Shown here: positions 3,510 to 24,018 of the stretch, one piece after another
Position numbering within the stretch: the first letter of the stretch is position 1
Layout of the letters: every line of letters starts with the position of its first letter
Source: a virus
Taxonomy: Duplodnaviria > Heunggongvirae > Uroviricota > Caudoviricetes
Virus record (IMG/VR): IMGVR_UViG_2778261668_000002
Reading direction: 5' to 3' (one strand)
Length of the DNA: 29,430 nucleotides
Notes under the pieces: generated by a model
Database searches by the model: none
What the model saw: the letters and a program-made list of their open reading frames with translations, nothing else
Told to the model about the DNA's origin: nothing
Made by a program: the position numbers and the translations under genes

Positions 3510-5784
3510 AGCCTCCGGGCGTTTTGTCCCTCCGTCAGCATTTGCCGCAGGCACCGGTAAGGCGTTTACCGGTGCTTATGCATGGAACGCGCCACGCGAG
3601 GCCGTCGGGCGGGAAAGACCCCTTACACGTGACGAGATGCGTCAGGTGCAAGGTGTTTTATCCACGATTAACCGCCTGCCTTACTTTTTGCGCTCGCTGT
3701 TTACTTCACGCTATGACTACATCCGGCGCAATAAAAGCCCGGTGCACGGGTTTTATTTCCTCACATCCACTTTTCAGCGTCGTTTATGGCCGCGCATTGA
3801 GCGTGTGAATCAGCGCCATGAAATGAACACCGACGCGTCGTTGCTGTTTCTGGCAGAGCGCGACCAGTATGCGCGCCTGCCGGGGATGAATGACAAGGAG
3901 CTGAAAAAGTTTGCCGCCCGAATCTCATCGCAGCTTTTCATGATGTATGAGGAACTCTGCGATGCCTGGGTGGATGCGCATGGCGAAAAAGAATCGCTGT
4001 TTACGGATGAGGCGCAGGCTCACCTGTATGGTCATGTTGCTGGCGCTGCACGTGCTTTCAATATTTCCCCGCTTTACTGGAGAAAATACCGTAAAGGGCA
4101 GATGACCACGAGGCAGGCATATTCTGCCATTGCTCGCCTGTTTAACGATGAGTGGTGGATTAGTCAGCTTAAAGGCCAGCGTATGCGCTGGCATGAGGCG
4201 TTACTGATTGCTGTCGGGGAGGTCAATAAAGACCGTTCACCTTATGCCAGTAAACATGCCATTCGTGATGTGCGTGCGCGCCGCCAGGCAAATCTGGAAT
4301 TTCTTAAATCGTGTGACCTTGAAAACAGGGAAACCGGCGAGCGCATCGACCTTATCAGTAAGGTGATGGGCAGTATTTCTAATCCTGAAATTCGCCGGAT
4401 GGAGCTGATGAACACCATTGCCGGTATTGAGCGTTACGCCGCCTCAGAGGGTGATGTGGGGATGTTTATCACGCTTACCGCGCCGTCAAAGTATCACCCG
4501 ACACGTCAGGTTGGAAAAGGCGAAAATAAAACCGTCCAGCTTAATCACGGCTGGAATGATGAGGCATTTAATCCAAAGGATGCGCAGCGTTATCTCTGCC
4601 GTATCTGGAGCCTGATGCGCACGGCATTCAAGGATAATGATTTACAGGTCTACGGTTTGCGAGTCGTCGAGCCACACCACGACGGAACGCCGCACTGGCA
4701 TATGATGCTTTTTTGTAATCCACGCCAGCGTAACCAGATTATCGAAATCATGCGTCGCTATGCGCTCAAAGAGGATGGCGACGAAAGAGGAGCCGCGCGA
4801 AACCGTTTTCAGGCAAAACACCTTAACCGGGGCGGTGCTGCGGGATATATCGCGAAATACATTTCAAAAAATATCGACGGCTATGCACTGGATGGTCAGC
4901 TCGATAACGATACCGGCAGGCCGCTGAAAGACACTGCCGCGGCTGTTACCGCATGGGCGTCAACGTGGCGCATTCCGCAATTTAAAACGGTTGGCCTGCC
5001 GACAATGGGGGCTTACCGTGAACTACGCAAATTGCCTCGCGGCGTCAGCATTGCTGATGAGTTTGACGAGCGCGTCGAGGCTGCACGCGCCGCCGCAGAC
5101 AGTGGCGATTTTGCGTTGTATATCAGCGCGCAGGGTGGGGCAAATGTCCCGCGCGATTGTCAGACTGTCAGGGTCGCCCGTAGCCCGTCGGATGACGTTA
5201 ACGAGTACGAGGAAGAAGTCGAGAGAGTGGTCGGCATTTACGCGCCGCATCTCGGCGCGCGTCATATTCATATCACCAGAACGACGGACTGGCGCATTGT
5301 GCCGAAAGTTCCGGTCGTTGAGCCTTTGACTTTAAAAAGCGGCATCGCCGCGCCTCGGAGTCCTGTCAATAACTGTGGAAAGCTCACTGGTGGTGATACT
5401 TCGTTACCGGCTCCCACACCTTCTGAGCACGCCGCCGCAGTGCTTAATCTGGTTGATGACGGTGTTATCGAATGGAATGACCCGGAGGTCGTGAGGGCGC
5501 TCAGGGGCGCATTAAAACACGACCTGAGAACACCAAACCGTCAGCAAAGAAGCGGAAGCCCGTTAAAAGCGCATGAAATAGCGCCATCGGCCAGACTGAC
5601 CCGGTCGGAACGAATGCAAATTACCCGTATCCGCGTTGACCTTGCTCAGAACGGTATCAGGCCGCAGCGATGGGAGCTTGAGGCGCTGGTGCGTGGCGCG
5701 ACCGTAAATTATGACGGGAAAAAATTCACGTATCCGGTCGCTGATGAGTGGCCGGGATTCTCAACAGTAATGGAGTGGACATGA
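3499..5784 (+). CDS. A: Rolling-circle replication initiator endonuclease (P2 gpA family)
   Basis: 761-aa product from the ATG at 3499 (MAVKASGRF...; the track's ORF starts at an upstream TTG). Contains a metal-binding HxH motif (EPHHDGTPHWHMMLF) and a catalytic-tyrosine motif (GYIAKYISKNIDGY) typical of rolling-circle Rep proteins. Confidence 0.9.
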   Translation: MAVKASGRFVPPSAFAAGTGKAFTGAYAWNAPREAVGRERPLTRDEMRQVQGVLSTINRLPYFLRSLFTSRYDYIRRNKSPVHGFYFLTSTFQRRLWPRIERVNQRHEMNTDASLLFLAERDQYARLPGMNDKELKKFAARISSQLFMMYEELCDAWVDAHGEKESLFTDEAQAHLYGHVAGAARAFNISPLYWRKYRKGQMTTRQAYSAIARLFNDEWWISQLKGQRMRWHEALLIAVGEVNKDRSPYASKHAIRDVRARRQANLEFLKSCDLENRETGERIDLISKVMGSISNPEIRRMELMNTIAGIERYAASEGDVGMFITLTAPSKYHPTRQVGKGENKTVQLNHGWNDEAFNPKDAQRYLCRIWSLMRTAFKDNDLQVYGLRVVEPHHDGTPHWHMMLFCNPRQRNQIIEIMRRYALKEDGDERGAARNRFQAKHLNRGGAAGYIAKYISKNIDGYALDGQLDNDTGRPLKDTAAAVTAWASTWRIPQFKTVGLPTMGAYRELRKLPRGVSIADEFDERVEAARAAADSGDFALYISAQGGANVPRDCQTVRVARSPSDDVNEYEEEVERVVGIYAPHLGARHIHITRTTDWRIVPKVPVVEPLTLKSGIAAPRSPVNNCGKLTGGDTSLPAPTPSEHAAAVLNLVDDGVIEWNDPEVVRALRGALKHDLRTPNRQQRSGSPLKAHEIAPSARLTRSERMQITRIRVDLAQNGIRPQRWELEALVRGATVNYDGKKFTYPVADEWPGFSTVMEWT

Positions 5785-6236
5785 TGGCAAAAATTCACGA
5801 GGTAAAGCTGCACGCAAAATATTTTGACCTTGTGCTGGAAGGAAAGAAACGCGCAGAGTTTCGGAAAAATGACCGTAATTATGAGCGCGGGGACACGTTG
5901 ATTTTGCATGAATGGGCGCAGGGTGTGTATACGGGGCGAAAGGTTGAAGCCCGGATAACAGATGTTACTGACCTGTCAGACTGGCTGGAAGATTATGTCT
6001 TGCTAAGTATTGAGCTGCTTAATACAGGCGCATATGAGATTGTGAACTGGAAAGAACTTAGTGAGCGTGGTCTGGTATTCAGAATTAATCATGAAATTAT
6101 GCATCAGCTCGGCCTTGCTGTTATGTATGCACCAGAGACGGGGATGTCTGGCGGGGCAATGGTTGCCACGGATGGAGCATGGAACTATTCAGATGAACAG
6201 ATTGAGCGTGCAAAGCAAAACGGGTGGCTTGGATAA
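5781..6236 (+). CDS. ASCH/PUA-like (DUF3850-type) protein with a C-terminal extension containing an HExxH motif
   Basis: Start ATG overlaps the A stop (ATGA at 5781-5784). N-terminal EVKLHAKYFDLVLEGKKRAEFRKNDRNYERGDTLILHEW resembles ASCH-like domains; the C-terminal part contains NHEIMH. Confidence 0.55.
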   Translation: MMAKIHEVKLHAKYFDLVLEGKKRAEFRKNDRNYERGDTLILHEWAQGVYTGRKVEARITDVTDLSDWLEDYVLLSIELLNTGAYEIVNWKELSERGLVFRINHEIMHQLGLAVMYAPETGMSGGAMVATDGAWNYSDEQIERAKQNGWLG

Positions 6237-6442
6237 TGCACAGAATACCGGGCGAGATACCGCAACATAACACTAAAAATATCAAGCTGATGGCTATTGT
6301 TCACCGTCTACAGCAGATTATGGTCAACGAAAATCTGACGCCTGACGAGCTGGTCGGGTGTGCCGAAATAGTCCGGGATAATTACGGGCGGCTTAATTAT
6401 ATCCGTCAGTCCAGAGTTGCTCCACCGCCACGCAGACTATAG
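6236..6442 (+). CDS. Small hypothetical protein, translationally coupled to the ASCH-like gene
   Basis: TAATG overlap at 6234-6238; 68 aa; no recognisable motif. The track shows it from a GTG at 6224. Confidence 0.4.
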   Translation: MHRIPGEIPQHNTKNIKLMAIVHRLQQIMVNENLTPDELVGCAEIVRDNYGRLNYIRQSRVAPPPRRL

Positions 6443-6616
6443 AAAACGCCGTCAGTCTTGAAACTTGTTTTCAGGGCTGGCGGGGTTGAACAACGAGCAT
6501 CGCGAGGCGTTAGTGGTATTGGAACCAATGAGAAAACAAAAAACTCAACGCCTCCCCTCATGTTTGATGGTATGGTCTTGTTTTTAGGTAATGAAGCTTT
6601 ATTCGGGTGACGTGTC

Positions 6617-6622
6617 TAATAT
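6617..6622 (+). promoter_or_regulatory. Candidate -10 element (TAATAT) for the cargo gene
   Basis: TAATAT lies 36 nt upstream of the 6658 ATG in the AT-rich leader; no convincing -35 hexamer, so this is weak. Confidence 0.3.
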
Positions 6623-6657
6623 AGCTTTCTGCATGACGTTAGAATGATGATGAGATC

Positions 6658-7260
6658 ATGTTATTAATGAATGAGAAAAAAAGACAAAAATATCTAAAGA
6701 TAATGTTTGAATGTCAAAAGCGACTTGAAACACTTCATGCTTTATCATCTGGAAGGATTGATGGCATTTATTTTCAAGTGTTAATTGAAATGGAGGCGTT
6801 GCAGCTTAGGAAGCTACTAGAGCTCATTGCATTTTCATCTCTAATTTCACATGAAAAAGCATACGAGAAGGTTACAAAGAAGATTGATGGTGTATGGAAG
6901 GCGAAGAATATATTTAAAGAGTTGGAAAAGATAAACCCTAACTTTTATCCAGTACCAATATCAGGAGTAACCAAAACGGGCTGGACGAAACTAACGGGAG
7001 GTTTTTTGACGAAAAAACAGTTTATCAAGCTATATGATGAATGCTCAAAACATATTCACGTAAGGAACCCATATCGGGTTAGGGAAAACTCGCTGGGGTT
7101 TCATAAAAAAGTTCCAGAGTATTTATCAAGAATTGAAACTCTACTGTTAAAGCACATTGTTTCTCTTGCCGGGAATGAAGAACTTCTTCTTGTAGATGTG
7201 CCTCATTATGAAGACTCTGTAACAGCTATAAAAATGAGCCACCTCGTTAAAATGGGGTGA
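6658..7260 (+). CDS. Orphan AT-rich cargo gene in the P2 tin/old-equivalent slot; candidate single-gene anti-phage defence or abortive-infection protein
   Basis: 200-aa ORF (start 6658 or 6667) in an island of about 30-35% G+C by hand count; K/E-rich, no transmembrane segment; preceded by a 215-bp non-coding AT-rich leader and followed by a hairpin terminator; sits between replication gene A and cos. Confidence 0.65.
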   Translation: MLLMNEKKRQKYLKIMFECQKRLETLHALSSGRIDGIYFQVLIEMEALQLRKLLELIAFSSLISHEKAYEKVTKKIDGVWKAKNIFKELEKINPNFYPVPISGVTKTGWTKLTGGFLTKKQFIKLYDECSKHIHVRNPYRVRENSLGFHKKVPEYLSRIETLLLKHIVSLAGNEELLLVDVPHYEDSVTAIKMSHLVKMG

Positions 7261-18800: not shown

Positions 18801-19404
18801 TTCGCGCCTGCTGCCGACCGGCTCATCACCGCTTGAAGTTGCCGCCGCAAAAGCCTGTGCGGAAATTGAAAAAACGCCGGTCAGTATTCGTGAGCTGTGG
18901 AACCCGGACACCTGCCCGGCAAATCTGCTGCCGTGGCTGGCGTGGTCATTTTCGGTTGACCGCTGGGATGATAAGTGGCCGGAAGCGACAAAACGCGCTG
19001 TTATCCGCGATGCGTATTTCATTCACTGCCATAAGGGCACTATAGGCGCAATCCGGCGTGTGGTGGAGCCGCTCGGCTATCTGATTGAGGTAAGGGAGTG
19101 GTGGCAGCTCAACGAGGAGCCGGGGACGTTCCGTATCGTTGTTGGCGTGCTTGAGCAGGGTATTACCGAAGAAATGTATCAGGAGCTGGAGCGCCTCGTT
19201 GCTGATGCAAAACCGGCAAGCCGCCATCTGACGGGACTGGCTATCAGTTTAAGTACAAACGGCAACATTTTTGCCGATGCGGGATGCTATCACGGCGACG
19301 CCCTGACGGTTTATCCCTACACCCCGGAGGCCATTATTGTCGGAGGGGATTATTTCCCGGCCTCGGCCATTCATTTAATTGATAACCTGAGAGTAAACGC
19401 ATGA
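18793..19404 (+). CDS. I: Baseplate protein (P2 gpI family), longer than the P2 protein as I remember it
   Basis: 203-aa ORF overlapping the J stop; synteny. Confidence 0.8.
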   Translation: MSDSRLLPTGSSPLEVAAAKACAEIEKTPVSIRELWNPDTCPANLLPWLAWSFSVDRWDDKWPEATKRAVIRDAYFIHCHKGTIGAIRRVVEPLGYLIEVREWWQLNEEPGTFRIVVGVLEQGITEEMYQELERLVADAKPASRHLTGLAISLSTNGNIFADAGCYHGDALTVYPYTPEAIIVGGDYFPASAIHLIDNLRVNA

Positions 19405-20732
19405 CAGTGAAATACTACGCCATTCTGACTAATCAGGGCGCAGCACGGCTGGCTAACGCGACGATGCTCGGCAGTAAGCTGAATCTGACGCAAATGGCCG
19501 TTGGTGATGCGAATGGTGTCTTGCCGACACCAGACCCGGCACAGACAAAACTGATTAACCAGAAACGCATCGCGCCGCTGAATCTTCTGAATGTTGACCC
19601 GAACAACCAGAGCCAGATTATTGCGGAGCAAATCATCCCTGAGAACGAGGGCGGATTCTGGATCCGTGAGATTGGGCTTTATGATGATGAAGGCGTACTC
19701 ATTGCGGTGGCGAACTGCCCGGAAACGTACAAACCGCAGTTGCAGGAAGGCAGCGGTCGTACCCAGACTATCCGCATGATTCTGGTTGTCACGAATACCG
19801 AAGCTATCACGCTGAAAATCGACCCGTCGGTGGTACTGGCGACCCGTAAATACGTGGATGATGAAGTCCTGGAATTAAGGCTGTATGTGGATGACCAGAT
19901 GAGGAACCATATTGCCGCACAGGATCCTCATACCCAGTATGCACAGAAACATAATCCGACATTTACCGGAGAACCAAAAGCGCCGACGCCTGCCGCAGGA
20001 AATAACACCACGCGGATTGCGACCACTGAGTTTGTTCAGGCCGCTATTACCGCTCTGATTAACGGTGCGCCAGCCACGCTGGACACACTGAAAGAAATTG
20101 CCGCAGCCATTAACAATGACCCGAAATTCAGCACCACCATTAACAATGCGCTGTCAGGTAAGCAGCCACTGGATGAGACGCTGACTCATTTGAGTGGAAA
20201 GGATGTTGCCGGTCTTCTCGCATACCTTGGTTTAGGGGAAGGCTCTGCTTTGCCGGTTGGCGTCCCCATTCCGTGGCCGTCAGCAACACCCCCAACGGGA
20301 TGGCTTAAGTGCAACGGAGCGGCGTTCACGGCCTCCCAGTACCCTAAGCTGGCTCAGGCCTATCCGGCGCTCAGACTGCCTGATCTACGCGGGGAGTTTA
20401 TCCGGGGATGGGATGATGGGCGTGGGGTTGATGCAGGAAGGGAATTACTGTCAAGCCAGGAGCATACCGTCATATCCCACAATCACGCGATTCCTACGAC
20501 GGTTAATACTCCAACTGCTATCCCTCCAGGTGTAGAGCAGGTGATAGCAAATGAAACTATTTTTTCTCCTGCAGCTCAATACGGATGTGACTATTGGGCT
20601 AATGGAGGCAGGACATTCACCTATATGTCTGGCGGCAAAAATGGTGCGGAGAACATCAATGATGCCTCATCAATGAAAGGTGAAACTCGTCCACGCAACG
20701 TCGTATTTAACTACATCGTGAGGGCTGCATAA
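19401..20732 (+). CDS. H: Tail fibre protein H: constant N-terminal part plus the currently expressed invertible C-terminal part
   Basis: 443 aa; N-terminus MTVKYYAILTNQGAARLANA typical of P2-like fibres; the C-terminal part contains RGEFIRGWDDGRGVD. The hix-like site at 20215-20240 lies inside the coding frame. Confidence 0.85.
   Translation: MTVKYYAILTNQGAARLANATMLGSKLNLTQMAVGDANGVLPTPDPAQTKLINQKRIAPLNLLNVDPNNQSQIIAEQIIPENEGGFWIREIGLYDDEGVLIAVANCPETYKPQLQEGSGRTQTIRMILVVTNTEAITLKIDPSVVLATRKYVDDEVLELRLYVDDQMRNHIAAQDPHTQYAQKHNPTFTGEPKAPTPAAGNNTTRIATTEFVQAAITALINGAPATLDTLKEIAAAINNDPKFSTTINNALSGKQPLDETLTHLSGKDVAGLLAYLGLGEGSALPVGVPIPWPSATPPTGWLKCNGAAFTASQYPKLAQAYPALRLPDLRGEFIRGWDDGRGVDAGRELLSSQEHTVISHNHAIPTTVNTPTAIPPGVEQVIANETIFSPAAQYGCDYWANGGRTFTYMSGGKNGAENINDASSMKGETRPRNVVFNYIVRAA
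20215..20240. repeat. hix-like 26-bp recombination site (left) inside gene H
   Basis: TTCTCGCATACCTTGGTTTAGGGGAA; 22 of 26 positions, including the central TTGGTTTAGG, match the reverse complement of the site at 22094-22119, and it resembles the hix/gix consensus as I remember it. Confidence 0.6.
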
Positions 20733-21334
20733 TGGTCAAAGCTGAATTAAATCAGGACATGATCGCCACGGTGGCCGGTGAAATCACCGTCTACAACTAC
20801 GATGGCGAGACGCGCGAATATCTTTCCACATCAACTGAATATCTTGCGGTTGGCGTCGGCATCCCGGCATGTTCTTGTTTAGATGCACCAGTTACACATA
20901 AAGCTGGTTATGCAATCTGCCGTTCTGCAGATTTTAACTCATGGGAATATGTGCCAGACCATCGCGGTGAAATTGTCTATAGCACCGAAACGGGAGATAC
21001 CAAAGAAATCACAACTCCGGGCGACTATCCCGAAAATACAACCACCCTCGCCCCGTTAACGCCATACGATGAATGGGATGGTGAGAAATGGGTGACAGAT
21101 ACTGAGGCACAGCATAGCGCCGCAGTAGGCGCGGCAGAAGCACAGCGTCAGTCACTGATTGATACTGCAATGGCTTCCATTAGTCTGATTCAACTGAAAT
21201 TGCAGGCCGGGCGGAAGCTGATGCAGACAGAAAACACCCGACTTAACGCTGTGCTGGATTACATTGACGCGGTGACGGCAACAGATACCAGCACCGCGCC
21301 GGACGTCATCTGGCCTGAACTGCCGGAGGCGTAG
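20732..21334 (+). CDS. G: Tail fibre assembly chaperone (gpG/Tfa family), inside the invertible segment
   Basis: 200-aa ORF with a TAATG overlap with H. Confidence 0.75.
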   Translation: MVKAELNQDMIATVAGEITVYNYDGETREYLSTSTEYLAVGVGIPACSCLDAPVTHKAGYAICRSADFNSWEYVPDHRGEIVYSTETGDTKEITTPGDYPENTTTLAPLTPYDEWDGEKWVTDTEAQHSAAVGAAEAQRQSLIDTAMASISLIQLKLQAGRKLMQTENTRLNAVLDYIDAVTATDTSTAPDVIWPELPEA

Positions 21335-21746
21335 GCCATTCAATATCTGGCGCACCGGAAGTATCGACCAGTTCCAGTGCGTCCAGATAATCCAGCCACA
21401 AATTATATTGCGCCAGTTCCTCACCTTTCAGGCGACCAATCGCCGCTTTACCAGGCCATTGCTTACTGTTTATGTATTCGTTGACCTGATCAATCAATTG
21501 CTGCTTTTCCAGTTCGGCTGCGGCAATTTGTTCCTCATGAGTTGGCGGTGGAATATCAATCCATGCAGGCATTCCGTCGATGACGCCTCTGTATTTTCCT
21601 TCTGGTGCTTCCTTCATAAATTCGGCGGCAACAGTGTCGTCAATTTCGATTCCATCATCGGGCCATTCGCCGGATTCCTGATAAGCGATTTTAAGCTCCA
21701 CAGGGAAAAACGCATTTTTATCGGCACTGAAAATATATTTCTGCAT
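21306..21746 (-). CDS. Alternative tail fibre assembly chaperone (Tfa), opposite orientation
   Basis: 146-aa minus-strand ORF; its C-terminus (LVDTSGAPDIEWPTPPA) is similar to the gpG C-terminus (ATDTSTAPDVIWPELPEA). Confidence 0.7.
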   Translation of the reverse strand: MQKYIFSADKNAFFPVELKIAYQESGEWPDDGIEIDDTVAAEFMKEAPEGKYRGVIDGMPAWIDIPPPTHEEQIAAAELEKQQLIDQVNEYINSKQWPGKAAIGRLKGEELAQYNLWLDYLDALELVDTSGAPDIEWPTPPAVQAR

Positions 21747-21748
21747 TT

Positions 21749-22147
21749 CTACCGTCCTATCGAAATATAACTGAATCTGTATTGCTGTGAGATATCACTG
21801 GTTGCCACACGCCACGCTGAATTACTGATATGTTCAAAATTTACAGACAAAACCTGCGGGGCAGGATTCGACGGGTCTGACTGAACGGCATCAGACATAA
21901 CACTGACTGAAACCATTGGCTGATTAGGGAATGGTATAGGGAAGTGTCCACTGATAAAGCGGGTCGTGTTTCCTGAAAAAGTGCCAAACTGAACAATATA
22001 TCCACCTGGTAGCCTGAACCATCCCGAACCAGAAGCGAATGCTCCCATATCCGGTATCTGATTATCTCCTGTGCCCACATCCCTTTTCGCCGCTTCTCCT
22101 AAACCAACGTTTATGAAAATGCAGAGATAACGGGCAACTGGCATCAT
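21749..22147 (-). CDS. Alternative tail fibre C-terminal segment, silent in this orientation; would fuse to the constant part of H after inversion
   Basis: Minus-strand reading frame running into the hix-like site at 22094-22119 and encoding ...VGLGEAAKRDVGTG..., which matches ...AYLGLGE at the hix site inside H. Confidence 0.65.
   Translation of the reverse strand: MMPVARYLCIFINVGLGEAAKRDVGTGDNQIPDMGAFASGSGWFRLPGGYIVQFGTFSGNTTRFISGHFPIPFPNQPMVSVSVMSDAVQSDPSNPAPQVLSVNFEHISNSAWRVATSDISQQYRFSYISIGR
22094..22119. repeat. hix-like 26-bp recombination site (right), about 55 bp upstream of the invertase gene
   Basis: TTCTCCTAAACCAACGTTTATGAAAA; inverted relative to the site at 20215-20240. Confidence 0.6.
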
Positions 22148-22174
22148 CTCCGGTTTTTATTCAGGGGGATGCTC

Positions 22175-22768
22175 ATGCTTATTGGCTATGTACGCGTGTC
22201 AACAAATGACCAGAACACGGAATTGCAGCGTAACGCGCTGGAGTGCGCGGGATGTGAGCGGATTTTTGAGGACAAAATCAGCGGCACGAAGTCCGACAGG
22301 CCGGGACTGAAAAAACTGCTCAGGACATTATCGGAGGGGGATACACTGGTAGTCTGGAAGCTGGACCGGCTGGGGCGTAGTATGCGGCATCTGGTCATTC
22401 TGGTTGAGGAGCTGCGCGAACGCGGCATTAATTTTCGCAGCCTGACGGATGCTATTGATACCAGCACGCCGATGGGGCGTTTTTTCTTTCATGTGATGGG
22501 TGCCCTGGCTGAAATGGAACGAGAACTCATTGTCGAGCGGACTCGGGCCGGGCTGGAAGCGGCCAGAGCCAAAGGTCGTATTGGTGGCAGACGACCGAAA
22601 CTCACCGCGAGTGAGTGGGAGCAGGCCGGGCGTTTGCTGGCTGCAGGGGAGTCACGTCAACGCGTGGCACTGATTTTTGATATTGGTCTGTCCACGCTCT
22701 ATAAAAAATTTCCCTCATCAGCGACAAAGAATAAATTGTGTCATCCCTTAGCCAACCGGGACAAATAG
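22175..22768 (+). CDS. Hin/Gin/Cin-family serine DNA invertase
   Basis: N-terminus MLIGYVRVSTNDQNTELQRNAL with the catalytic serine context and a C-terminal HTH (GLSTLYKKF); GGGGG ribosome-binding site 6 nt upstream of the ATG at 22175. Confidence 0.9.
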   Translation: MLIGYVRVSTNDQNTELQRNALECAGCERIFEDKISGTKSDRPGLKKLLRTLSEGDTLVVWKLDRLGRSMRHLVILVEELRERGINFRSLTDAIDTSTPMGRFFFHVMGALAEMERELIVERTRAGLEAARAKGRIGGRRPKLTASEWEQAGRLLAAGESRQRVALIFDIGLSTLYKKFPSSATKNKLCHPLANRDK

Positions 22769-22827
22769 CCTGACATCTCCGGCACAACTGAAAATATCAC
22801 TCACCCATTAACCACGGAGTTAAACGG

Positions 22828-24018
22828 ATGAGTGACTATCATCACGGCGTGCAGGTGCTGGAGATTAACGACGGCACCCGCGTCATTTCCACCGTATCCA
22901 CTGCCATTGTCGGCATGGTCTGCACGGCCAGCGATGCGGATGCGGAAACCTTCCCCCTCAATAAACCGGTGCTGATTACCAATGTGCAGAGTGCAATTGC
23001 AAAGGCCGGTAAAAAAGGCACGCTGGCGGCATCGTTGCAGGCCATCGCCGACCAGTCAAAACCGGTCACCGTTGTCGTACGTGTGGAAGACGGCACCGGC
23101 GACGACGAGGAAACGAAACTCGCGCAGACCGTTTCCAATATCATCGGCACCACCGACGAAAACGGTCAGTACACCGGACTGAAAGCCCTGCTGGCGGCGG
23201 AGTCGGTAACCGGTGTTAAACCGCGTATTCTCGGCGTGCCGGGACTGGACACCAAAGAGGTGGCTGTTGCACTGGCATCAGTCTGTCAGAAGCTGCGCGC
23301 TTTCGGGTATATCAGCGCATGGGGCTGTAAAACCATTTCCGAGGTGAAAGCCTACCGCCAGAATTTCAGCCAGCGTGAGCTGATGGTCATCTGGCCGGAT
23401 TTCCTCGCATGGGATACGGTCACGAGTACCACCGCCACCGCGTATGCCACCGCCCGTGCGCTGGGACTGCGTGCCAAAATCGACCAGGAGCAGGGCTGGC
23501 ATAAAACGCTGTCCAACGTCGGGGTGAACGGTGTTACCGGCATCAGCGCATCTGTATTCTGGGATTTGCAGGAGTCCGGCACCGATGCTGACCTGCTTAA
23601 CGAGTCAGGCGTCACAACACTGATTCGCCGCGACGGTTTCCGCTTCTGGGGTAACCGTACCTGCTCTGATGACCCGCTGTTCCTCTTTGAAAACTACACC
23701 CGCACCGCGCAGGTGCTGGCCGACACGATGGCTGAGGCGCACATGTGGGCGGTGGACAAGCCCATCACCGCAACGCTGATTCGCGACATCGTTGACGGCA
23801 TCAATGCCAAATTCCGTGAGCTGAAAACAAACGGCTATATCGTGGATGCGACCTGCTGGTTCAGCGAAGAATCCAACGATGCGGAAACCCTCAAGGCCGG
23901 AAAACTGTATATCGACTACGACTATACACCGGTGCCTCCTCTTGAAAACCTGACCCTGCGCCAGCGTATTACCGATAAATACCTGGTAAATCTGGTCACC
24001 TCGGTTAACAGCAATTAA
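22828..24018 (+). CDS. FI: Contractile tail sheath protein (P2 gpFI family)
   Basis: 396-aa ORF with GGAG ribosome-binding site; length matches P2 FI. Confidence 0.9.
   Translation: MSDYHHGVQVLEINDGTRVISTVSTAIVGMVCTASDADAETFPLNKPVLITNVQSAIAKAGKKGTLAASLQAIADQSKPVTVVVRVEDGTGDDEETKLAQTVSNIIGTTDENGQYTGLKALLAAESVTGVKPRILGVPGLDTKEVAVALASVCQKLRAFGYISAWGCKTISEVKAYRQNFSQRELMVIWPDFLAWDTVTSTTATAYATARALGLRAKIDQEQGWHKTLSNVGVNGVTGISASVFWDLQESGTDADLLNESGVTTLIRRDGFRFWGNRTCSDDPLFLFENYTRTAQVLADTMAEAHMWAVDKPITATLIRDIVDGINAKFRELKTNGYIVDATCWFSEESNDAETLKAGKLYIDYDYTPVPPLENLTLRQRITDKYLVNLVTSVNSN

Follow-up and report, generated by a model that had tools for sequence, protein, structure and literature searches.

Several fibre-gene inversion systems of prophages have been described. 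In the e14 element, the inversion repeats used in vivo by the invertases PinE and PinQ have been published as TTGGTTTGGGAGAAGG, and an inversion product, StfE2, has been reported to block the adsorption of phage T2 (PMC12529663). Among P2-like prophages, Goldberg et al. found inversions in two elements of enteropathogenic Escherichia coli (EPEC) E2348/69, one with two variants and the other, which has three repeats, with four variants confirmed by the polymerase chain reaction (PMC4272514). Zaworski et al. described a fibre segment of Fels-2, beside fin, that is inverted between LT2 and LT7 (PMC7953296), and in the survey of Egorov et al. a DNA invertase was 'often' present in the Z/fun hotspot of P2-like phages, with the adjacent genes inverted (bioRxiv 10.1101/2024.10.15.618418). 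Here we analyse a locus that resembles these in a stretch of 29,430 nt from a P2-like (Peduovirus) prophage (IMG/VR record IMGVR_UViG_2778261668_000002), referred to below as the window. The focal region, positions 19401–22768, contains the tail-fibre gene H, two inverted crossover sites flanking a segment with two alternative fibre C-termini (Hc and Hc′) and their assembly chaperones (Tfa and Tfa′), and a gene for a serine DNA invertase. We consider it very probable that these make up a site-specific inversion switch of the Pin/Gin type, which serves the tail fibre of a complete P2-like prophage.

Both orientations of the segment occur in nature

Comparison with related prophages indicates that the segment between the two sites is inverted in nature. 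In the prophages of E. coli BS74R-D and E-93 (L004 and L005), both flanks match at every position (100%; 3841 and 3736 bp), and the 1893-bp middle is exactly inverted at 99.9% identity, with its breakpoints in the sites. The alignments overlap only in the part that the sites have in common; the outer half-sites are fixed and the inner half-sites swap. The same exact inversion between near-identical flanks is seen in a pair from a second P2-like lineage (L097/L098) and in a pair from a Mu-like remnant (L100/L103), and the position of the left site is the inversion breakpoint in both L004/L005 and L097/L098. Phage pro483 is in the flipped state relative to the window: its flanks are 97.3% identical, the alignment stops exactly at 20241 and 22093, and the middle is homologous but reversed.

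The 3.4-kb region, both as found and flipped in silico, was compared by megablast with 5,426 complete genomes of E. coli. For the orientation as found, 17 genomes cover at least 80% of the query in one collinear place, and for the flipped one 12 do so; the scores of the two queries are mirror images of each other. The complete E. coli genome NZ_OY754349.1 carries two related P2-like prophages that have the module in opposite orientations, at 4.64 Mb and 1.77 Mb (H35 and H63). Genomes with any match to the region have a median of 2 matching places and a maximum of 12.

The product of inversion is also present in public data. The exact 394-aa fibre fusion, which the window does not encode as it stands, was found on one NCBI contig in a collection of 15 billion proteins. 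The 443-aa fibre as found is carried by at least 24 contigs, whose names give E. coli or E. fergusonii, and several of these agree with the window at 100% identity for as much as 13.3 kb. The assemblies ENA ERZ28761703 and SRR6714111 are among those with 100% identity to the window. In IMG/VR, a scan for the unflipped junction located it in 23 contigs.

Draft assemblies bear on the same point. In Yokenella, Citrobacter, Kluyvera, Trabulsiella, Mixta and others, contigs begin inside the site or right next to it, 65–125 bp 5′ of the invertase gene; in L009, L012, L020, L021, L024, L028 and L037 the site falls in the first 1–30 bases. These cases, like the relatives used in the synonymous test described below, came from contigs of one genome per species, a set that does not include the exact allele of the window and in which its best match is 87–88%. 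Their position suggests that assemblies break at the site because both orientations are present in the reads. A 2575-bp contig (L113, from GCA_008358325.1, 6 samples) consists of the constant region, the whole segment and the reverse complement of the constant region (window 19880–22107). Its second constant region is 97.2% identical, with 10 mismatches, and both junction types, including that between the constant part of H and Hc′, stand on the one contig, which stems either from misassembly of mixed orientations or from the collapsing of two related prophages into one sequence. Broken contigs and L113 alike are the expected response of assemblers to two orientations, or to two opposed copies, in the reads.

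Fibre cassettes and the product of inversion

The segment holds two convergent cassettes on opposite strands, each comprising a fibre C-terminus and a Tfa chaperone, and the two tips belong to different Pfam families, Collar (Hc) and Gp53-like_C (Hc′). Following reverse complementation of 20227–22107 in silico, the fibre frame remains open and encodes the 394-aa protein with the gp53-like tip; this protein and the 443-aa fibre have residues 1–280 in common. The N-terminus of H is 98.9% identical to that of the pro483 fibre, its collinear match to relatives ending at 20241, and the DNA that is truly exchanged by inversion is 20229–22105. In the orientation found, the Tfa start codon overlaps the H stop codon; after the flip, the ATG of Tfa′ lies 2 nt past the stop codon of the new fibre gene, H′. 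Because the chaperone starts abut the respective fibre stops, each tip is translationally coupled to its own chaperone.

An earlier note on this DNA had proposed that inversion would replace the C-terminus of H and Tfa with the products of 21749–22147 and 21306–21746. The exchange itself is borne out by the in-frame recombinant and by the occurrence of the exact protein in public data; the first of these two reading frames has to be trimmed, since its first 14 codons lie outside the segment. This silent-side open reading frame (ORF; 132 aa, minus strand) is ATG-initiated and begins in the spacer before the invertase gene. Its exact product is found on about 1000 contigs, labelled 'phage tail protein' or 'gp53-like domain-containing protein', and a sigma-70 scan detected no promoter for it. 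At their 3′ ends (21306–21334), the convergent chaperone genes share 29 bp, and an 18-nt inverted repeat (I4; 21253–21270 and 21379–21396) flanks the overlap; it seems to reflect the C-terminal Tfa motif LDYIDA/LDYLDA that the two chaperones have in common on opposite strands.

Crossover sites

The longest inverted repeat of the region, 20215–20241 and 22093–22119, spans 27 nt, is 78% complementary, and has its arms 1851 nt apart. It contains the two inverted 26-bp sites to which the earlier note had drawn attention, and these are recovered both by the inverted-repeat search and by a consensus scan. Each 26-mer consists of two 12-bp half-sites around a 2-bp core (12-2-12), both cores are TT once the sites are read in one direction, and all four half-sites conform to TTYTCNNAAACC apart from a few mismatches. 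The 26-nt consensus TTYTCNNAAACCTTGGTTTNNGAGAA, with at most 3 mismatches allowed, matched only two places in the 29.4-kb window, which are the two sites, and gave 0 matches across 100 shuffles. The scan of the window thus yielded two sites only, without the third that would make a shufflon of the kind found in an EPEC prophage of the P2 type. At position 320, a sequence resembling a half-site had no credible partner half and was dismissed as chance.

Both sites fall within tail-fibre reading frames, and the inner half-site codes for G-L-G-E in each, within the contexts ...AYLGLGEGSALP in H and ...INVGLGEAAKRD on the minus strand; the common GLGE junction described in the earlier note is therefore real. 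The outer half-site at 22108–22119 is non-coding, yet it is conserved with e14. Alignment with known sites, which that note had recommended, places those of the window close to e14. The gix sites, as read from the Mu record, are TTATCCAAAACC TC GGTTTACAGGAA and have the same 12-2-12 layout, and those of e14 are CTCTCGAAAACC TT GGTTTGGGAGAA and TTTTCATAAACG TT GGTTTGGGAGAA. The invertase-proximal site of the window and the e14 site next to pinE differ at a single position and agree at the other 25 of the 26.

The invertase

The serine invertase gene that the earlier note had placed at 22175–22768 is a genuine ORF. It can be read from 22169 or 22175, the likely start being the ATG at 22175, which fits the N-termini of Gin and Pin, and it encodes a full-length protein of 197 residues with the architecture of small serine recombinases, an N-terminal catalytic domain (Pfam Resolvase, residues 5–137, 8.8e-53) followed by a C-terminal helix-turn-helix (HTH_7, residues 140–183, 1e-12). 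Comparison with the Gin structure 3UJ3 gives E = 4.6e-95 and with gamma-delta resolvase 8.5e-34. Identities extend to 160 of 184 residues of PinE (87%) and 149 of 193 of Gin (77%), and reach 97% with the enzymes of phage pro483 and of the E. coli prophage pair L004/L005. An inactivating mutation at the catalytic serine, which the earlier note had considered, was sought in the alignment with 3UJ3 and 4M6F; Ser9 is present, and its motif MLIGYVRVSTNDQ is intact and, like KLDRLGRS, identical to Gin.

Residues unique to the invertases that depend on Fis and an enhancer have been defined as Gln151, Arg154 and Leu155 of Hin and the basic helix-B residues 47, 48 and 51 (McLean et al., PMC3798978). 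These residues are conserved in the window (EWEQAGRLL and RPGLKKLLR, compared with EWEQAGRLL and RPGLKRALK in Gin), and at the position equivalent to Gin-114 the enzyme has the wild-type Met. The exact protein was found on 869 contigs. From these comparisons, the enzyme is to be classed as a member of the Gin/Pin-type serine invertases, and its gene is intact.

A candidate enhancer in the invertase gene

Inversion by Hin, Gin and Cin requires a Fis-bound enhancer in cis, which lies within the 5′ part of the invertase gene. Codon diversity at positions where the amino acid is conserved was analysed in 34 distinct, codon-aligned invertase genes of at least 70% protein identity. Synonymous diversity is lowest over the first ~35 codons (~100 nt), with minima at nt 16–45 and 61–105, and the eight lowest 27-codon windows of the gene all begin at codons 1–8. 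When normalised for degeneracy, codons 6–32 score 0.645 and the codons elsewhere 0.833 (Mann–Whitney p = 0.004, for sequences that are phylogenetically related). Fis-like 15-mers are found at gene nt 22–36 (GTGTCAACAAATGAC, almost invariant) and at about 71–85, the first of which also codes for the catalytic motif. The low synonymous variation fits an embedded enhancer, although it falls short of proof.

P2-like context of the locus

The integrase, gpA, portal, baseplate, sheath, tube, tape measure and gpD genes follow one another in P2 order across the window (Pfam matches to Tail_P2_I, sheath, GPA, GPD, portal and integrase), and the gene order at the locus fits the P2 scheme V W J I H G ... 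FI FII E T U D, with P2 gpI (Tail_P2_I) upstream and a P2-type sheath downstream. The nearest phage records to the window are Peduovirus. Judged by its gene content, the window is a full P2-like prophage, apparently complete. Five ORFs occupy 19401–22768, of 443 aa (+), 200 aa (+), 146 aa (−), 132 aa (−) and 197/199 aa (+), and their parts are set out in Table 1. The G+C content of parts of the invertible segment (right part, 21450–22199) is 0.44–0.47, compared with about 0.51–0.60 in the flanks of P2 backbone.

Table 1. Features of the tail-fibre inversion locus, in window coordinates
Feature	Position	Strand	Basis or remark
Constant N-terminal part of H, 276 codons	19401–20228	+	Phage_tail_fib N-terminal domain, 1.9e-62; outside the invertible segment
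Left crossover site, pixL-like, TTCTCGCATACC TT GGTTTAGGGGAA	20215–20240	+	Core TT at 20227–20228
Invertible segment, core to core, 1881 bp	20227–22107		In-silico flip in frame; homologous inversions
Hc, fibre C-terminus currently expressed, 167 aa	20229–20732	+	Pfam Collar, 4.4e-15
Tfa, assembly chaperone of the current orientation, 200 aa	20732–21334	+	Pfam Caudo_TAP, 3.5e-30
Tfa′, alternative chaperone, 146 aa, silent in the orientation found	21306–21746	−	Pfam Caudo_TAP, 1.5e-34
Hc′, alternative fibre C-terminus, 118 aa, silent in the orientation found	21749–22105	−	Pfam Gp53-like_C, 3.1e-09
Right crossover site, pixR-like, TTTTCATAAACG TT GGTTTAGGAGAA on the minus strand	22094–22119	−	Core at 22106–22107
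Serine DNA invertase, 197 aa, Pin/Gin/Hin/Cin family	22175–22768	+	Pfam Resolvase + HTH_7
Candidate recombinational enhancer (putative), in the 5′ end of the invertase gene	22196–22259	+	Low synonymous diversity, Fis-like 15-mers

In P2, fun(Z) ends about 290 bp 5′ of the annotated pF activator site and FI comes next. The 100 bp before FI in the window are nearly identical to the P2 pF region (window 22737–22835; NC_001895 17555–17660, equivalent to L114 556–660), and the match starts within the last ~11 codons of the invertase ORF, the stop codon included. As the pF match begins inside the end of this ORF, the invertase module sits in the Z/fun slot; the position assigned to it in the earlier note thus holds, since the module abuts pF sequence just as fun(Z) lies directly upstream of pF and FI in P2. 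The 13-aa extension at the C-terminus of the invertase looks like a by-product of the join between module and P2 backbone, because the end of the ORF is P2 promoter sequence. At its 3′ end, the invertase gene runs into the late promoter of the sheath operon.

Window positions 5748–7260, situated between the gpA and portal genes, contain an ASCH/DUF3850/DUF7415 protein at 5748–6236 and a 200-aa ORF at 6658–7260 that has no Pfam or PADLOC match. PADLOC found nothing among the ORFs of this interval, which may be accessory or defence cargo and whose position we take to be that of the P2 old/tin hotspot.

Mobility of the cassette

An identical 146-aa Tfa′ is found in the same cassette arrangement in at least four prophage backbones (segment at about 6628–8505 in L097–L100, L103 and L105). 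These are the P2-like type of the window, a second P2-like type, a Mu-like remnant, and a remnant with Phage_Wedge1 and Baseplate_J genes, and each has its own outer half-site in its fibre gene. The identity of Tfa′ across the four backbones, the distinct outer half-sites and the lower G+C content of the segment together imply that the cassette moves between phages as a module. No invertase gene was called beside the segment in the Mu-like remnant (L100/L103); since the segment is nevertheless flipped there, flipping in trans is implied.

Proposed mechanism and alternative explanations

The 5′ part of H (19401–20228) is transcribed with the upstream baseplate genes and ends inside the 26-bp crossover site. 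We propose that invertase dimers would bind both sites and synapse with an enhancer near the start of the invertase gene, to which Fis would be bound; the enzyme would then cut at the common TT core, rotate and religate, leaving 20227–22107 flipped. In the orientation found, H ends in the Collar tip (443 aa) and is followed by the TfaE-like chaperone, and after inversion it would end in the gp53-like tip (394 aa), followed by the TfaP-like chaperone. Virions from a population of lysogens would thus be of two kinds, which differ in receptor specificity.

Several observations weigh against an active, Fis-dependent switch in this copy. The evidence for inversion is comparative, the two orientations having been read from different assemblies rather than from one culture. 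The inner half-sites of the window, GGTTTAGGGGAA and GGTTTAGGAGAA, are 1–2 bases off the e14/L004 version GGTTTGGGAGAA. A sigma-70 scan 5′ of 22175 gave nothing convincing, with a count of 5 in the region and a shuffle mean of 3.3. The Fis sites are candidates at the level of motifs, the distal one is not A/T-rich, and the starts of genes carry other constraints that can lower synonymous variation.

Some of these observations would be expected if the switch were a fossil in this copy, with the invertase or the divergent sites dead and the fibre locked in the Collar-tip orientation. The substitutions in the inner half-sites relative to e14 and L004, the want of a clear promoter 5′ of the invertase gene and the disparity between the at least 24 contigs that carry the as-found fibre and the single contig that carries the flipped one all lean this way. 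Yet the enzyme is of full length, with 97% identity to its counterparts in pro483 and L004/L005; the two sites have matching core dinucleotides; public data contain the exact flipped fusion protein of this allele; the junction H-const::Hc′ is present on L113; and the characterised gix departs more from pix than the sites of the window do. We therefore regard a locked copy, whether by decay of the sites or of the enzyme, as decidedly unlikely. That the inverted repeat is a product of chance or of purely coding similarity, GLGE being encoded in two fibre genes, with no function in recombination, would sit well with its modest complementarity of 78% over 27 nt and with the coding constraint on part of it. 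This reading is effectively refuted, and deserves next to no credence, given that the shuffled sequences gave 0 consensus matches, that natural inversion breakpoints fall exactly in the sites and that the non-coding outer half-site is conserved with e14.

The two remaining alternatives concern the agent of inversion and its beneficiary. Inversion might be carried out mainly in trans by host invertases of the Pin family (those of e14, Qin, Rac or co-resident prophages), with the adjacent gene in a minor role. PinQ, from Qin, inverts the P segment of e14 (PMC12529663), where the repeats differ little from those of the window; the cassette flips in L100/L103, where no adjacent invertase gene was called; and E. 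coli genomes tend to hold more than one matching place, as noted above. Against this, the invertase in cis is intact and its gene has a pattern consistent with an embedded enhancer; invertases of the enhancer-dependent type need the enhancer on the same DNA, and here it appears to be located in this very gene. Trans action would moreover supplement cis action and not substitute for it. We thus consider trans action by host Pin enzymes plausible as an addition to cis action, and improbable as the main route. Alternatively, the main benefit could accrue to the lysogen, through chimeric fibre-derived proteins that block the adsorption of other phages in the manner of StfE2 of e14. Hc is 50% identical to StfE and Tfa 88% to TfaE, the silent-side ORF 21749–22147 retains its ATG and reads across the site, and the e14 inversion product has been reported to stop T2 adsorption (PMC12529663). 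These likenesses have to be set against a complete P2-like prophage with its fibre gene in the late operon, and against a silent-side ORF for which no promoter was found; a separate chaperone for each tip also fits virion assembly. The P2 late operon is silent in lysogens. Defence as the main benefit is accordingly very improbable in our judgement.

A broader reading, to which we give a small probability, is that the cassette is a shared, horizontally moving switch module and that the switch serves host defence or coordination between prophages in addition to host range. If so, one Pin-family invertase could flip the fibres of several co-resident prophages in trans, and the silent-side ORF could provide the lysogen with a phage-blocking, fibre-derived protein, as has been reported for StfE2.

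Overall, the earlier observation of an invertase gene beside two inverted sites is confirmed, and its interpretation as an invertible tail-fibre switch of a P2-like prophage is supported. An inversion switch explains why fibres of two lengths (443 aa and 394 aa) are annotated in public records, why a 132-aa 'gp53-like' ORF is called beside the invertase, and why draft assemblies break frequently at the locus. For phage biology and therapy, it flags a prophage that probably yields virions of two adsorption types. The value of the finding is greater for annotation than for discovery.

Comparison with known systems

The closest known relative of the element is the P segment of e14 with Pin, rather than the G segment of Mu or the C segment of P1. 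The crossover sites are nearly identical and have the TT core in common, and the layout is the same, with two convergent cassettes of fibre tip and Tfa and the invertase just outside. The e14 segment measures 1797 bp (PMC12529663), compared with about 1.8–1.9 kb here. Identity to the e14 proteins is 88% for Tfa (with TfaE), 56% for Tfa′ (with TfaP) and 50% for Hc (with the C-terminus of StfE), whereas the gp53-like tip of Hc′ has no significant match to StfP, nor to the Mu tips. The two elements differ in that PinE has 184 residues and the window invertase 197, including the C-terminal extension of 13 aa, and in that e14 is a defective lambdoid remnant, whereas the window is an apparently complete P2-like prophage whose constant part is a full P2-type H N-terminus.

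The earlier note had assigned the switch to the Mu G/P1 C type. The logic is indeed the same as in Mu G (Gin) and P1 C (Cin), and Mu has the constant Sc outside, S/U and S′/U′ inside and the invertase adjacent, but e14 is nearer. The Mu sites share the 12-2-12 layout; their core is TC and not TT, and their half-sites (TTATCCAAAACC) are not the same. At about 3 kb, the G segment is longer than the segment here (1.88 kb), the backbone is different, and the Mu fibre tips are essentially unrelated, with only Tfa′ weakly like U′ (31% over 73 aa).

Closer in backbone is the Peduovirus pro483, an Escherichia phage in which the same module occurs on a P2-like backbone and the gene is annotated as a DNA invertase, a label that public records of relatives already bear. 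In pro483 the module is in the opposite orientation and the cassettes have diverged, with about 74–86% DNA identity where they can be aligned and 67% identity between Tfa′ and ORF32. Salmonella phage MET_P1_103_31 is 94.4% identical over 93% of the region and has the same orientation as the window. The prophages of EPEC E2348/69, Fels-2 and those of the Z/fun survey represent the same phage family and the same locus, a likeness drawn from their descriptions; the EPEC locus with three repeats and four variants differs from the window, which has two sites. The element is thus already known, in that its enzyme family, site type, layout and placement at Z/fun have all been described, and it involves no new mechanism.

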